Notes: generated by a model from the sequence alone, not told the origin. Shown: positions 7,769 through 12,307, numbered from the whole stretch's first letter. The stretch: 45,698 nt of DNA, filler included, from Catajapyx aquilonaris (GCA_000934665.2; 2 parts of 2 records of this genome joined end to end with filler, not necessarily neighbours in it); one strand, 5' to 3'. Program-made: numbers and translations.

Positions 7769-8301
7769 ATGGCATCTGAATCCGAGAGGGACAAGAACTC
7801 CTGGAGCGAGTTGCATCTGGCGGCAAGCAAGGGACATTTTGACATAATCCAAGACCTACTTCGGCGGGGAGAAGATGTGAACGCAAGGAGCAGCATACTC
7901 TACAGGACCCCGCTCATTTTGGCAGCCAGAGTCCCAAACATCCTGACCTGCGAGAAGCTGGTGTCTCACCCTGGATGCGACGTCAATTCGCAGGACCATT
8001 CCGGTGTGTCCGCCCTTCACGAGGCGGCGGAACGAGGCAGCGTGCAGGTGTGTCAACTGCTAATTGACAACGGTGCCAAGGTGGACATCCGGACAGACGA
8101 TGGGTTCACTCCGCTGCATATGGCGGCAAAGGCTGGTCAGCTGATGGTGGCCGAGCTTTTGCTGGAGAAGGGAGCTGACCCACTGGCCTTCACCAACGAG
8201 GAAGTGACCCCGTCATTCCTCGCAAATGACGCAGGGCACACGGCTGTATGGAAGATCCTCAAGGATGCAGCGGACAAGGCCCAGAACCAGGGTGGAGCAA
8301 G
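7769..8301 (+). CDS. Exon 1: ankyrin-repeat domain (about 4 repeats plus a partial fifth)
   Basis: SELHLAASKGH..GEDVN, TPLILAA..GCDVN, SALHEAAERGS..GAKVD, TPLHMAAKAGQ..GADP. The ORF-track stop TAA (8303-8305) lies inside the donor AG|GTAAGG. Confidence 0.92.
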
Positions 8302-11300
8302 GTAAGGATAGCGATTTGATGAATACGAATGCATTTCATCTCAATCCGATTCGTTCCTTCCACAGCAGGATTACTGAGTTGGCAGAAGAAGTGTTCCCTT
8401 TGAAAGAGGGCCATCTGAATAGGGTCTTCAAAGTCTCCCGTTTTTTGGGCTCTGGAGGTTTCGGGTTGGCGTTTGAGGCTCTGGAGGTGCGCACGAATCG
8501 AACGTGTGCTATTAAACGCATATGCCTGCCGAGTGCTACAAGCAAATCCATGAGGGATGTTCGGGCCCTGATGAAGCTTCGGCATACCAACATTATCACC
8601 TTCTACGGATGCTGGAGAGAACAACCACTGTCCAAGGATCAAGGGGATTGGGACATGAACCATTTCACGGACTTGGTGTGCTCCAGGCAGACGTACCATC
8701 CTCACACCACCCCCTACCTCTACGTCCAGATGGAGTTGTGCCAGAGGGAAACCCTGGAGCATTACATCTCCAAGAACAGGAACGAGGTGAACCAGCCCGA
8801 GTTCCTGTCCTACTTCCTGCAGATAACTTCGGCCTTGAGTTATATCCACGGAAGGGGCTACATCCACAGGGACCTGAAGCCTTCCAACGTCTTCTTCTCC
8901 CTGGATGGTGTTGTGAAAGTGGGGGATTTCGGGTTGGCCAAGGAGATCGCGGGCTATTCCATCCGGACGTTGACCCACCAAAGCCACACCGGTGGGGTAG
9001 GCACCCTGTGGTACATGAGTCCGGAGCAGCAGAGTGGAGAGAAATACGACTACAAGAGTGACATATTCTCTCTCGGGGTAATATTCTATCTTGGGATGAC
9101 CTCATTCCCAAGCACGTTCACTGCTCGCCAACATGAACGTACTCTGATGATGTTAAAGTTTAGTGATAGTGTTCCTCCGCATTTTGAAGAACAAAATCCA
9201 GAGAGTAGACGGGACCTCCTTCTCTTAATGTGCAAGAATGAATCAGAAGAAAGACCCTCGGCGGGTGACGTACGAAAGAGCGTGGCAGAATGGTGAGTTC
9301 ACCTTAGTTATTAATATTCTCATTAATAAAAAATATTACTGCAAGCGATTTTCACATCTTGAGGAAAATAGGGATCGATCTATGGGGTTGAATATTAACT
9401 AGTGTAGGCCTACCCCATATTTGCGGGTACTAGGTTCGTTTATAACATAGACGTGTATGAGCGGGTTTCTAATATTAAAATCAGGTCTGCAGCAGCACGG
9501 GTGTATATTTTATCGTCAAAATTCCTCGTCATGCACTATTCAGAATGAAATCCTCTGCCGATTGCATCACGTTTCGTAACGGATTACTGTACAATTAAAT
9601 CCTGCACATCAAAGCAAGCAACATTCTCACTAGTACCCCACTAGTATCAAGAGTTGAGGGGTGTGGTGGAAAAAGGTGACAACCCTCTGTTTTGTCATTT
9701 TTGACCTGAACACCCAGCAACTTTGTAAAAGATATGACAAACAGCTTGTTATACTCCGAGTTCACGTATCATGCACGTGACGGCGACACAGACTAGATCA
9801 AAACCATCATTCCCTATGATTTGTGATAATATTGCAATATTCAATTTGCTCTCCTGAAAAATGACACTTTCGAGGGCTGTCACGTTTTTCCACTCCACCC
9901 CTCAGTTATTTTTCCATTTTACAAACTGTATACATGCGACGAGAGTTACCGCACTATTTCCCAAAATCCTCTGACAGTTTCTCCATACTTAAGCTTAGTT
10001 AGATATAATGTTTATTTGCTTCACATTTTTCCAACTGAGGCACTCATCAATTGTCGATGTCTTGCAACGCCCGTATTTGATATGGGTCGTTATAATAATG
10101 TTTTTCTCTTTGTGCCAGGCTGAATACAAGTGGGCCAGGCCTCCCCACTGCAGCTGTACATTTACTTCAGTCGTCCATAGAGGTAATCATTGTCCCTTTT
10201 GTCCCCTCCCCCATGCGGCACTCTCCTTCCAATACCACACACCCAGTCGTGTACGCATATATAGTAACTTATTTGAAAGTCTAATAATGTCACTTGCCTT
10301 GAGATTTTCACGTGGCACCTAGTCTTGCCCAATATCTACCGAATGATAATGAACTGAAGTGGCTGCTATTGGTAGCAGAGCACATTTGCATAATTGATTG
10401 ACCTGTATGAATATGGAATATGCAGTAAATTCCCTGATTATGGAACAAAATATTCACGTAAAGTCATGACGCAATATCTTGGTCATGTTGTAGGCGGGTA
10501 GTGTGAATAGCCTTGTCTCTGAAAGTCTGGCGACACGTATTACTCACGAATGGAAATAAATAATAATAAAATTGAGTCTTCACCTACATGATGACATATG
10601 CGCATCATTATAATGCATATCCATGCGTGTCCTTTTGCTCAGAAAAGCCGCACATTTAATCTTTGTACCCTTTCCGGATTTCGAATGAAACAGACGAGAA
10701 TTTTCAACCCCCATTTGCAGGTGTTCCTATTATTTTCTACAGCCCATGTATATGCGACAGCATGTTCTGAATAAATCTGCCAAAATGATGCAGGTAGTAG
10801 AGGGTGCGTATGGATGAATCATGACATGGGTCCAAAAAGCCCTCGATGATGTGCATCCTGACAAGTATGGGTACCCCCGTACATGCCTGCATTGCTGGTT
10901 GCCGGGGACAGGCACTCTCACTACCAGACGGTTGCTCAATCGACCTGGCTCCGGCAACCAGGCATGCAGGCATGTACGGCGGTATCAATACTTGTCAAGA
11001 AAGATATGGTCAACGTCAAAGGTCGTTGCAGGCCTTTCGGACCCATGCCATGCTTCTTCCATAATCACCCTCCCCCCCACTACCAATATCATTTTGGCAG
11101 GTGGATTCATGAACACGCTGTGTAAATGGAATTTTTTCCTATATTAGAATATTTTCACAACATATTTTGGACAATTTAACAAATACACTTGCTTTTTTTG
11201 CAGGATGATAATAGCAGTAGTGTCCGAGAACAAGGGGCGAAGGAGATGGACGAATCAACAAATGAACATGGAGGGTCGAGTGGAAGCCACCATTCTCCTG

Positions 11301-12307
11301 CAGGATCTTCGGGAAAGGGGGAAAACTACTCACGCCCATTTGACACGGACAACTCTAAGGAAATATTCGGTGCTGCTGACACCTGGCTTCAGCCAGGCAG
11401 ATTGAAAGACTCACTATCAGATAACCAGGAAGTTTTACCTGAAGTAGAGGGGGAGTTGGGTCATGACCATCCGGACACTCTTAGCCCAAATAATAACATG
11501 GCAGTGGCGCTAGTGAATCAAGGAAATTTCAACGAAGCCTTGCGGTCATACAGGGAAGTTTTGAATAATATGGTACAAGTGTTGGGTCAGGACCATCCGA
11601 ACACCCTTAGCACAATGTATAACATAGCAATGGTGCTACAGAAGCAAGGTAATTACGACGAAGCCTTGCTGGCATACAGGGAGGTTTCGGAAAAGAGGGA
11701 GAAAGTGTTGGGTCATGACCATCCGGATACTCTTATGACAAAGAATATCGTAGCAGGGGTGCTATGGAAACAAGGTAATTACGGCGAAGCCTTGAGGGAA
11801 TATAGGGAGGTTTTGAATGAGCAGGAAAAGGTGTTTGGTCATGACCATCCGGACACTCTTAACACAATAAATAACATAGCAGAGGCGCTAATCAGTCAAG
11901 GAAATTACGCCGAAGCCTTGCGGGCATACATGGACGTTTTCGATAACCAGGAAAAGGTGTTGGGTCATGACCATCCGGACACCCTTGCGACTAAGAATAG
12001 CATAGCAGGAATGCTGTGGAAGCAAGTAAATTACGACGAAGCCTTACGTGTTTACAGGGACGTTTTGGAAAAAAGGGAAAAAGTGTTGGGTCATGACCAT
12101 CAGGACACTATTAACACAAGGGGCAACATAGCAGTGGTGCTACTGGATCAAGGGAAATACGACGAAGCCTTGCGTGTTTTCAGGGAGGTTTTGGAGAAGA
12201 GGGAAAAAGTGTTGGGTCATGACCATCCGGACACTCTTCAGACAAAGGTGACCATGGCTAATGTGCTATGCCGCCAAGGGGAGCACAACGAAGCCTTGTG
12301 GTCTTAG
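7769..12307 (+). CDS. Predicted 4-exon gene: ankyrin repeats + PERK-like eIF2-alpha-family kinase + 42-aa TPR array (875 aa), copy 1
   Basis: Exons 7769-8301, 8366-9292, 10119-10182, 11204-12307 = 2628 nt, one open frame. Introns GTAAGG..TTCCACAG (phase 2), GTGAGT..GTGCCAG (phase 2), GTAATC..TTTTTTTGCAG (phase 0). ATG in GACCATGG context with an upstream in-frame stop at 7748. The first five splice sites recur in copy 2; the exon 3 to TPR join cannot be cross-checked. Confidence 0.72.
8366..9292 (+). CDS. Exon 2: Ser/Thr kinase domain of the eIF2-alpha kinase family, most like PERK/PEK
   Basis: LGSGGFG, AIKRI, short insert, YLYVQMELC, HRDLKPSNVFFSLDGVVKVGDFGL, HTGGVGTLWYMSPEQ, KSDIFSLGVI, EERPSA closely follow PERK motifs (YLYIQMQLC, HRDLKPSNIFF, HTGQVGTxLYMSPEQ). 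Confidence 0.92.
9656..9903. mobile_element. MITE with GAG...CTC ends and 4-bp TSD (Sola-like)
   Basis: TIRs GAGGGGTGTGGTGGAAAAAGGTGACAACCCTC and GAGGGCTGTCACGTTTTTCCACTCCACCCCTC; AGTT at 9652-9655 and 9904-9907. Confidence 0.7.
10119..10182 (+). CDS. Exon 3: 64-nt linker exon (W-LNTSGPGLPTAAVHLLQSSIE), absent from the ORF track in this frame
   Basis: Pyrimidine tract + CAG acceptor and AG|GTAATC donor; paralogous exon 21977-22037 has the same sites and differs in length by exactly 3 nt. Confidence 0.72.
10757..11120. mobile_element. Palindromic MITE-like element in intron 3
   Basis: ACAGCATGTTCTGAAT..CTGCCAAAATGAT pairs with ATCATTTTGGCAG..ATTCATGAACACGCTGT; inner CATGCCTGCATTGCTGGTTGCCGG pairs with CCGGCAACCAGGCATGCAGGCATG. 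Confidence 0.65.
11204..12307 (+). CDS. Exon 4: Ser/Gly-rich linker then seven 42-aa TPR repeats (kinesin light chain / nephrocystin-3 type)
   Basis: GGTCATGACCATCCGGAC (GHDHPD) or a close variant recurs every 126 nt at 11459, 11585, 11711, 11837, 11963, 12089 and 12215; degenerate eighth unit near 12341. No ATG start of its own in the track (TTG), but a strong acceptor at 11203. Confidence 0.9.
   Translation, partial: DDNSSSVREQGAKEMDESTNEHGGSSGSHHSPAGSSGKGENYSRPFDTDNSKEIFGAADTWLQPGRLKDSLSDNQEVLPEVEGELGHDHPDTLSPNNNMAVALVNQGNFNEALRSYREVLNNMVQVLGQDHPNTLSTMYNIAMVLQKQGNYDEALLAYREVSEKREKVLGHDHPDTLMTKNIVAGVLWKQGNYGEALREYREVLNEQEKVFGHDHPDTLNTINNIAEALISQGNYAEALRAYMDVFDNQEKVLGHDHPDTLATKNSIAGMLWKQVNYDEALRVYRDVLEKREKVLGHDHQDTINTRGNIAVVLLDQGKYDEALRVFREVLEKREKVLGHDHPDTLQTKVTMANVLCRQGEHNEALWS

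Follow-up and report, generated by a model that had tools for sequence, protein, structure and literature searches.

Double-stranded RNA clusters PKR and misfolded protein clusters PERK, and in RNase L, an innate-immunity effector, a kinase fold comes after ankyrin repeats. In PKR, helix alphaG is reportedly the element that docks eIF2-alpha. PKR is reported to be a jawed-vertebrate invention (PMC11305385). The locus described here (gene A, 7769-12307, + strand) lies in a stretch of 45,698 nucleotides, filler included, from Catajapyx aquilonaris (GCA_000934665.2; two parts joined end to end), which is referred to as the window. Pfam matches in its predicted product fall in the order ankyrin repeats, protein kinase, and KLC-type TPR_12 array. 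Gene A is probably an intact member of a lineage-specific animal family in which an ankyrin exon is followed by a very divergent PEK-family catalytic domain; in gene A itself a TPR tail likely follows. The order of ankyrin repeats and kinase fold is that of RNase L, but no Pfam match to a KEN/RNase domain was obtained, TPRs come after the kinase in the predicted join, and the kinase is of the eIF2-alpha kinase type and not the IRE1 type.

The kinase exon was matched by Pfam Pkinase (E 1e-46). A sequence search of the PDB ranked PERK first (2e-46, 33-34% identity), followed by PKR (1e-37), GCN2 (6e-37), HRI (7e-27), and Nek7 (2e-25). The 19 top sequence matches were all PERK, PKR, GCN2, or HRI, and PERK scored 161 bits versus 93 bits for Nek7, the first kinase from outside the family. 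The structure model of the exon had a pLDDT of 84.6, and in the fold search the 18 best listed matches were all PKR, PERK, or GCN2, with PKR at the top. Both sequence and fold place the kinase among the eIF2-alpha kinases, as an initial sequence-only reading of the locus had claimed, the best matches of both kinds all being family members. Judged from its sequence, it is also very divergent, with no more than 49% identity to any protein found in the searched collections. The exon contains the motifs GSGGFG, AIK, HRD, DFG, HTGGVGT, and SPE, and its LYVQMELC, HRDLKPSN, HTGGVGT-x-WYMSPEQ, and DIFSLG signatures align with PERK and PKR; those common to gene A and PERK can be written LY(I/V)QM(E/Q)LC, HRDLKPSN(I/V)FF, and HTG-VGT-x-YMSPEQ. 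The activation-loop Thr is present, HTGGVGT aligning with HTxxVGT of PERK and T-x-x-GT of PKR, and we take it to be the counterpart of PKR Thr446.

Outside these signatures gene A differs from PERK (EIF2AK3). The N-lobe insert between beta4 and beta5, modelled as a helix and a loop, comprises about 30 extra residues between CWREQP and YLYVQMELC, which is short, as in PKR, versus 100-250 residues in PERK. The N-terminus consists of ankyrin repeats, possibly complemented by the TPR arm, and the Pfam PQQ-like families found in PERK hits are missing. No luminal domain, dsRBD, Z-alpha, or RWD was matched by Pfam in the exons of gene A, and no transmembrane segment was detected, since no 19-residue window reached a Kyte-Doolittle value of 1.6 (maximum 1.39). 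The product is accordingly predicted to be cytosolic, a point on which the hydropathy and Pfam scans bear out the earlier claim. In this it resembles PKR (EIF2AK2) and fish PKZ, likewise cytosolic kinases of the family in which the insert is short and a sensor module precedes the kinase at the N-terminus, but it has neither of their nucleic-acid-binding modules named above.

Trees were built with PERK, PKR/PKZ, and, as an outgroup, bacterial kinases, and contained no GCN2, HRI, or Wee1 sequences. With this sampling the kinase of gene A was placed on a long branch as sister to PERK + PKR. Forcing it to group with 13 PERKs cost 14.5 lnL units (p-AU 0.023); grouping with 8 arthropod PERKs gave a p-AU of 0.015 and grouping with PKR/PKZ was rejected at 0.005, while a control constraint on the arthropod PERKs alone gave 0.115. 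These tests used the LG+G4 model on long branches, the groups were chosen with a first tree already at hand, and long-branch attraction is a caveat on the placement outside PERK + PKR. The sequence-only reading had called the kinase PERK-derived, and this part of it is unsupported because the kinase falls outside PERK + PKR in the trees. Short proteins of aphids, a beetle, and a leech that databases name 'eIF2AK3-like' are also PERK/PKR-like invertebrate kinases with a short N-terminus or the kinase only and no luminal domain. However, the aphid ones nest within the aphid PERK branch, whereas the gene A kinase nests with none of them, and none carries ankyrin repeats or TPRs.

Coordinates of the features are collected in Table 1. 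Three stop-to-stop ORFs cover gene A (7751-8305, ankyrin; 8208-9296, kinase; 11180-12307, TPR). The predicted join of 7769-8301 + 8366-9292 + 10119-10182 + 11204-12307 comprises 2628 nt, that is, 875 codons with a single terminal stop, and has intron phases 2, 2, and 0. Exon 1 was matched by Pfam Ank in four stretches (E 5e-33) and exon 4 by TPR_12 (E 3e-90); the TPR array has a period of 126, 7.4 copies, and 76% matches in Tandem Repeats Finder. The linker preceding the array matched no family, and the earliest query residue matched was 48 in the best-scoring stretches listed for 150 hits. Splice sites were scored with a rough donor and acceptor matrix, against all 2691 GT and 2582 AG of the window, and the six sites of gene A ranked between the 96.7th and 99.96th percentile (top 0.04-3.3%). 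The TAA of the ankyrin ORF lies inside its donor and the TGA of the kinase ORF inside the next; read-through of a phase-2 intron with a GTGAGT or GTAAGT donor stops at once and automatically, and this pattern is present at both donors. The tandem CAGCAG at the end of intron 1 permits an alternative in-frame acceptor 3 nt downstream.

Table 1. Features of gene A and of the neighbouring copy, in window coordinates (a slash marks an exon boundary).
Feature	Position	Strand	Description
Exon 1	7769..8301	+	Start codon (A at -3, G at +4), 177 ankyrin codons, phase-2 end at AG/GTAAGG; donor at 99.96th percentile of GT
Intron 1	8302..8365	+	64 nt; acceptor ttccttccacag/CAG; conserved in neighbouring copy
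Exon 2	8366..9292	+	Whole eIF2-alpha-kinase-family catalytic domain; phase-2 end at TG/GTGAGT
Possible short-form end	9294..9330	+	TGA 9294-9296 if donor unused; AATAAA 9325-9330, 29 nt past TGA; ankyrin-kinase form of 487 aa
Foldback (MITE-like) inverted repeat	9655..9904	.	Inside intron 2; 48-nt arms, 81% complementary
Candidate exon 3	10119..10182	+	64 nt, 21 codons + 1 base; restores frame from kinase to TPR exon
Nested foldback (MITE-like) element	10768..11109	.	Inside intron 3; ends 94 nt before TPR acceptor
Exon 4, first part	11204..11455	+	84-residue Ser/Gly/Asp-rich linker; possible independent ATG at 11244
Exon 4, second part	11456..12307	+	6.7 units of 42-residue (126-nt) TPR_12/TPR_10 array + TAG stop
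Decayed TPR-repeat continuation	12308..12382	+	Past stop, out of frame
Neighbouring copy, ankyrin + kinase	17908..19459	+	Ankyrin exon 17908-18440, kinase exon 18533-19459
Exon-3 counterpart in copy	21977..22037	+	61 nt; both splice sites kept

A neighbouring copy (17908-22037) shares with gene A only the blocks 7652-9313 and 10015-10413, its own homology ending at 22260, and no TPR exon was found for it within the window. Two in-frame TAG stops interrupt its kinase exon (19191-19193 and 19278-19280), and by its sequence it is a dead partial duplicate, a pseudogene. The sequence-only reading had described the in-frame splicing of three ORFs and a 64-nt exon (phases 2, 2, 0) into 875 aa, the stops of the ankyrin and kinase ORFs within GT donors, the ankyrin, kinase, and TPR domains, and the recurrence of the first five splice sites in a paralog. 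The open joined frame, both donor sequences, and the Pfam scan of the four pieces agreed with it, and all five sites were recovered in the copy, which as a paralog is nevertheless a pseudogene without TPRs. Between gene A and the copy, dN/dS over 485 codons was 0.34 overall, 0.27 in the kinase, and 0.52 in the ankyrin part. The ankyrin-kinase part of gene A is evidently a real gene, with coding sequence under purifying selection; in its predicted transcript the two exons are joined by the 64-nt intron 1, and neither a membrane segment nor a luminal domain is present in the predicted product.

Probably the kinase donor is also used, so that candidate exon 3 and the 1.1-kb exon 4 would extend the protein by about 6.7 kinesin-light-chain-type TPRs, preceded by a disordered linker. 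This join is favoured because a strong donor (position 9292, top 0.4% of GT in the window) sits exactly on the kinase stop, a single exon bridges the gap, and the strong acceptor at 11204 is in frame. When score thresholds were set, post hoc, at the observed values, the stretch from the kinase donor to the TPR acceptor contained a single open exon of length 3n+1, candidate exon 3, and 3/62 control stretches (overlapping, elsewhere in the window) yielded such an exon. The acceptor falls within the 64 nt that separate the upstream stop of the TPR ORF from its first ATG, and it continues the reading frame of exon 3. Between gene A and the copy, the sole internal indel of exon 3 is of 3 nt, whereas those flanking it are of 8, 14, 15, and 1 nt.

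An alternative held with less confidence, yet a serious one, is that gene A encodes ankyrin repeats and kinase only, in two exons (487 aa) or in three if the exon 3 donor is skipped and the frame stops at 10282-10284, the TPR ORF being a separate gene that begins with the ATG at 11244 or a decaying fragment and its in-frame fit a coincidence. The placement of AATAAA signals is in keeping with this, one following the kinase stop closely and two others (10555 and 10565) lying about 270 nt past the exon 3 read-through stop, and beyond the TPR stop no signal of this type appears for over 1 kb. The duplicated block ends at 10413, and since the shared blocks of the copy contain no TPRs, the end of the ancestral unit may have been within exon 3 or shortly beyond it. 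Counted on the same side are the GC3 of the TPRs (0.54) and linker (0.43) compared with the ankyrin (0.67) and kinase (0.64) exons, a pN/pS of 0.79 among TPR units, the truncated last unit of the array and the decayed unit past the stop, which indicates that the array was formerly longer, and the good context of the ATG at 11244 (A at -3, G at +4). Against it stand the donor on the kinase stop, the retention of the exon 3 donor in the copy, and the combination of a single strong-site 3n+1 exon with a strong acceptor in the matching frame, for which the odds of coincidence are roughly estimated at a few percent or less. Under the preferred four-exon model, the locus may yield the short form of 487 residues in addition to the 875-residue one.

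The catalytic motifs are intact apart from one residue. The Glu of helix alphaC, present in 12 other aligned kinases, is Asp in both window copies. In addition, the alphaG motif T-x-x-E-R is split by a 5-residue insert that lies at the start of the helix (modelled at kinase-exon residues 253-265) and was not seen in the non-window kinases of alignments of 14 and 50 sequences. Because of the alphaC Asp and the alphaG insert, eIF2-alpha is only a putative substrate. It is conceivable, with a probability again well short of even, that the protein is made but is not a functional eIF2-alpha kinase, having another substrate or serving chiefly as a scaffold or a weak kinase. Besides these two changes, the long branch outside PERK + PKR and the alteration in gene A of the N-terminal helix residues that we take to form the PKR dimer salt bridge are in line with that reading, the insert lying in what is presumably the docking helix. 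However, Lys, HRD, DFG, SPE, and the activation-loop Thr are retained, as are the Thr and E-R of the alphaG motif, eIF2-alpha kinases make up all the top matches in sequence and in fold, and dN/dS is lowest in the kinase exon. Quite improbable is a third possibility, in which the family turns over fast and this entire locus, like its neighbour, is one of its unexpressed or dying members. The pseudogene next to it, the foldback elements in both long introns, the decayed TPR tail, and the lack of an identical or near-identical protein in a collection including assemblies of public sequencing runs would suit that reading, but 875 open codons, intact splice sites, nearly intact catalytic motifs, and a dN/dS of 0.34 despite a pseudogene as one partner speak against it.

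If gene A encodes the ankyrin-kinase-TPR protein, the two repeat arms could serve as protein-binding surfaces, and binding or clustering through them would bring kinase domains together, in the manner of PKR and PERK. The conserved activation-loop Thr could then be autophosphorylated, after which the kinase would act on eIF2-alpha Ser51 or, its docking helix being altered, on a substrate that has diverged. That the product senses a pathogen or stress ligand, as had been proposed, is purely an inference. It is unlikely that gene A belongs to a family of arthropod enzymes, cytosolic and eIF2-alpha-kinase-like, whose members swap 'sensor' modules at the front and back and in which the TPRs recognise a pathogen or stress ligand and drive kinase clustering; if so, a translational shut-off defence with NLR-like TPR recognition would have arisen separately from vertebrate PKR.

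None of 240 relatives of the kinase carried ankyrin repeats, no protein combining ankyrin repeats, an eIF2-kinase-like domain, and TPRs was present in the collections searched, and a literature search found no publication on this architecture, which fits the earlier statement that no characterised member is known to have ankyrin and TPR arms. The sequence-only reading had further held that 42-residue TPR arrays serve as sensors in NLR-like proteins. Their occurrence there was confirmed by TPR_12 arrays in insect NB-ARC proteins. The ant Ank-NB-ARC-TPR-Ank protein P0269 has the same 42-residue TPR_12/TPR_10 type as gene A, together with ankyrin repeats, which was counted in favour of the repeat arms as sensors; unlike such STAND/NLR-like proteins, gene A gave no Pfam match to NB-ARC or NACHT NTPases in the four pieces scanned, and its central position is held by the kinase. 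The kinase-then-TPR_12 order of gene A is also that of bacterial Ser/Thr kinases with C-terminal TPR_12, but these have no ankyrin repeats, match the gene A kinase weakly (28-80 bits), and form the outgroup in the tree. Among the best 150 TPR representatives, 23 contained a kinase domain, and of four of these that were looked up, one bears the name of a Phycisphaerales kinase.

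The candidate ankyrin-kinase-TPR gene (gene A) was modelled on the forward strand from four exons, encoding the ankyrin repeats, the kinase, a short bridging segment (exon 3, 64 nt), and a linker with the TPR array. Joined, they comprise 2628 nt, equal to 875 codons and one terminal stop, with intron phases of 2, 2, and 0. This confirmed what the sequence-only reading had observed, namely that three ORFs and an additional 64-nt exon join in frame, and the ankyrin, kinase, and TPR assignments made there were reproduced with Pfam (Ank, Pkinase, and TPR_12/TPR_10). The donors were, in order, AG/GTAAGG, TG/GTGAGT, and AG/GTAATC, and the acceptors were ttccttccacag/C, ttctctttgtgccag/G, and ttgctttttttgcag/G (slashes mark exon boundaries). 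Splice sites were scored using a rough matrix giving indicative scores only, which placed the three donors at the 99.96th, 99.6th, and 96.7th percentiles of 2691 GT dinucleotides in the window and the three acceptors at the 98.1st, 98.9th, and 97.8th percentiles of 2582 AG dinucleotides. The stops closing the ankyrin and kinase ORFs both fall within donors, as had been claimed, an arrangement that a phase-2 intron yields automatically when its donor reads GTAAG or GTGAG; taken alone, TGA plus GT at 9294 has a chance expectation of about 1 in 16. The intron 1 acceptor (8363-8368) is a tandem CAGCAG (NAGNAG) that would permit two in-frame products one residue apart. Foldback elements are present in both long introns.

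Coordinates of ORFs, exons, and other features in the window
Feature	Positions	Strand	Description
Ankyrin ORF, stop to stop	7751-8305	+	Pfam Ank, E 5e-33, four stretches
Kinase ORF, stop to stop	8208-9296	+	Pfam Pkinase, E 1e-46
TPR ORF, stop to stop	11180-12307	+	Pfam TPR_12/TPR_10 array, E 3e-90
Gene A, exons 1 to 4	7769-8301, 8366-9292, 10119-10182, 11204-12307	+	Predicted
Copy, ankyrin exon	17908-18440	+	Pseudogene by sequence
Copy, kinase exon	18533-19459	+	Pseudogene by sequence
Copy, exon-3 counterpart	21977-22037	+	One 3-nt deletion relative to gene A
Possible receptor-like ORF	2-1618	+	539 codons, open at window start; Lig_chan, E 3e-4, under Pfam cut-off
Apparent decayed DNA transposon	27348-28695	-	Transposase_1, E 7.5e-10
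Probable retroelement fragment	43736-44011	+	RVT_1, E 8e-5, under cut-off
Dispersed repeat, ORF pairs	4408-4817, 14657-15121	+	Near-identical peptide stretches
Inverted duplication	33336-33608	-	Almost identical 90 residues shared with 33825-34199
Inverted duplication	33825-34199	+

A neighbouring copy of the ankyrin-kinase unit was aligned using tblastn and blastn, in which gene A 7652-9313 matched 17792-19480 at 82% nucleotide identity and 10015-10413 matched 21873-22260 at 75%. The copy retains each of the five splice sites that had been described as recurring there. The intron sequence flanking the exon-3 counterpart differs by indels of 8, 14, 15, and 1 nt, and this pattern fits a coding exon, weakly because exon 3 is conserved no better than its flanks. 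Two TAG triplets, 19191-19193 and 19278-19280, interrupt the reading frame of the kinase exon in the copy, which the sequence marks as a pseudogene; it is probably also a partial duplicate. Gene A itself ends in TAG (12305-12307); reassignment of TAG was rejected, since translation past 12305 does not produce TPR-like residues and the repeat resumes in another frame, and the shared TAG stops were therefore taken as coincidence. Over 485 aligned codons, dN/dS between gene A and the copy was 0.34 (ankyrin 0.52, kinase 0.27), which indicates past purifying selection on the ankyrin-kinase coding sequence, though one compared partner is dead. No TPR was found downstream of the copy within the window (tblastn, blastn), nor were hidden TPR remnants found anywhere else in it (tblastn, E 1e-3). 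Runs of N lie at 22790-22833 and 22846-22889, about 750 nt downstream of the exon-3 counterpart; if these are assembly gaps, the missing sequence could include a TPR exon of the copy. A single N occurs at 18500, after a poly-G run in intron 1 of the copy, and N also occurs at 43475.

Attachment of the TPR array was weighed using the sequence that separates the donor of the kinase exon from the acceptor of the TPR exon. Bridging exons were required to be open in frame, of length 3n+1, and with sites scoring at least as high as those observed (thresholds fixed after the data were seen); exon 3 was the only one that qualified, and when 62 overlapping control stretches from other parts of the window were scanned likewise, 3 gave a qualifying exon. 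A direct splice from 9292 to 11204 was rejected (out of frame, with a stop after 67 codons), as was a looser alternative exon at 10721-10793, whose sites are weaker and part of which falls inside a foldback element. The join is favoured by the uniqueness of exon 3, a strong donor on the kinase stop, and a strong acceptor within the 64 nt between the upstream stop and first ATG of the TPR ORF; this acceptor is in the frame delivered by exon 3, whose splice sites are kept in the copy. Against it, homology with the copy ends 231 nt past exon 3 with no TPR following, an AATAAA lies 29 nt after the TGA inside the kinase donor, two more lie beyond the exon-3 read-through stop (10282-10284), and over 1 kb separates the TPR stop from the first such signal past it. 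GC3 is 0.67 in the ankyrin part and 0.64 in the kinase versus 0.43 in the linker and 0.54 in the TPR part, the seventh TPR unit is truncated and followed by a decayed, out-of-frame eighth, pN/pS between TPR units is 0.79, and an ATG in good context at 11244 could start the TPR ORF independently. On balance, we consider it somewhat probable that the long form of 875 residues is made with the TPR array attached; a short form of 487 residues, ending at the TGA at 9294-9296, is possibly produced alongside it.

The kinase had been allied to the eIF2-alpha kinases, and comparisons with PDB agreed. The 19 best sequence matches among all PDB sequences were to PERK (2e-46), PKR (1e-37), GCN2 (6e-37), and HRI (7e-27), the first match outside the family being Nek7 (2e-25). 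An AlphaFold model of the kinase was built from a 50-sequence alignment (mean pLDDT 84.6, pTM 0.85), and its 18 best listed Foldseek matches were PKR, PERK, or GCN2 only, with a small margin over other kinases, as is expected for the kinase fold. Motifs were compared in an alignment of both window copies with 12 PERK, PKR, PKZ, and short PERK-like kinases. Family signatures were retained (LYVQMELC, HRDLKPSNVFF, KVGDFGL, HTGGVGTLWYMSPEQ, and DIFSLG), and the N-lobe carries a short insert of about 30 residues. At the helix alphaC position both window copies have aspartate and all 12 others glutamate, and the T-x-x-E-R motif that opens helix alphaG is split by five residues (likewise in the 50-sequence alignment). 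Helix alphaG, which reportedly docks eIF2-alpha, was modelled at kinase-exon residues 253-265. With alphaC carrying aspartate and alphaG interrupted by an insert, eIF2-alpha is a possible, not an assured, substrate.

Relatives of the kinase were collected with two word-index searches of 5.8 billion proteins; none of the 240 listed matches exceeded 49% identity. Trees were made from PERK-, PKR-, and PKZ-like or unnamed rows and a bacterial outgroup, without GCN2 and HRI. A 46-row tree, obtained by a quick search under a mixture model, placed gene A and the copy on a long branch of their own as the sister group of every PERK, PKR, and PKZ row, not nested among the arthropod PERKs, and a 26-row LG+G4 tree gave the same placement. 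In AU tests on the latter, holding gene A and the copy with 13 PERKs gave a p-AU of 0.023, with 8 arthropod PERKs 0.015, and with 8 PKR/PKZ 0.005, compared with 0.115 for a control holding the 8 arthropod PERKs alone, all under a simple model with a long window branch, a long bacterial outgroup, and groups named after the first tree was seen. PERK is the closest to the window kinase by pairwise score. The proposal that the kinase is PERK-derived was not borne out. The earlier interpretation of the gene is partly supported; we read the kinase as a very divergent member of the eIF2-alpha kinase family that is not demonstrably derived from PERK. Short, apparently cytosolic PERK/PKR-like kinases lacking the luminal domain were present among the database matches from aphids (P0122, P0124, P0128), a beetle (P0135), and a leech (P0136); those of aphids were nested within aphid PERK in the 46-row tree as recent offshoots.

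No 19-residue window of the joined protein reached a Kyte-Doolittle value of 1.6 (maximum 1.39), and the Pfam scan of gene A gave no luminal, dsRBD, Z-alpha, RWD, KEN, or NB-ARC match. None of the 240 listed kinase relatives matched the ankyrin exon, and the two that matched the TPR exon were bacterial-type kinases. The TPR array was searched against 1.84 billion representatives, and its relatives were generic TPR_12 proteins alone, at 49% identity or less. Among the best 150 representatives, 23 carried a kinase domain weakly matching that of the window (28-80 bits; at least one has the database name of a Phycisphaerales kinase), five carried ankyrin, and none carried ankyrin and kinase together. 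One of the ankyrin carriers, an ant protein arranged as Ank, NB-ARC, TPR_12, Ank, shows that this TPR type occurs in insect NLR-like proteins, in keeping with the suggestion that such arrays serve in invertebrate NLR-like proteins. No eIF2-alpha kinase with ankyrin or TPR was met in the literature searched, which included work on how these kinases evolved (PMC11305385, PMC5851622). The earlier remark that no characterised member with ankyrin plus TPR arms is known held among the listed relatives and that literature.

As judged from the sequence, the ankyrin-kinase coding region is intact, constrained, and predicted to be cytosolic, with an almost complete catalytic core. As in its relatives, the regulatory arms would switch the kinase on by bringing two catalytic domains together, and the pairing would lead to phosphorylation of the conserved activation-loop threonine. 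The trigger would be a protein or peptide-like ligand and not RNA, haem, or uncharged tRNA, because the arms are protein-binding repeats. Animals other than jawed vertebrates are expected to have three eIF2-alpha kinases (GCN2, PERK, and HRI), and PKR is not known from them. If expressed and active, a cytosolic kinase with such arms would give the integrated stress response a new input and might play the part of PKR in invertebrates, responding to proteins instead of RNA. It would also illustrate clearly how domains are shuffled around a single kinase exon. With its changes in alphaC and alphaG, the kinase would provide a natural test of what determines eIF2-alpha specificity. Gene A remains a predicted, well-formed gene model with unusual architecture.

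Elsewhere in the window, the ORF open at the window start matches a ligand-gated ion channel family weakly, and a search of 5.8 billion proteins found it no relative at E <= 1e-5; it is possibly a gene of ionotropic-receptor-like type that has diverged strongly. The region that looks like a decayed DNA transposon consists of neighbouring ORFs in different frames with one mariner-type transposase match, and the short ORF that is probably a retroelement fragment matches reverse transcriptase weakly. Peptide stretches such as KMAWCRKR-RCSLAS are common to the two ORF pairs that flank gene A on both sides as an evident dispersed repeat, the second of which (14657-15121) had no Pfam match. Two further ORFs on opposite strands, from their near identity, form a large inverted duplication.
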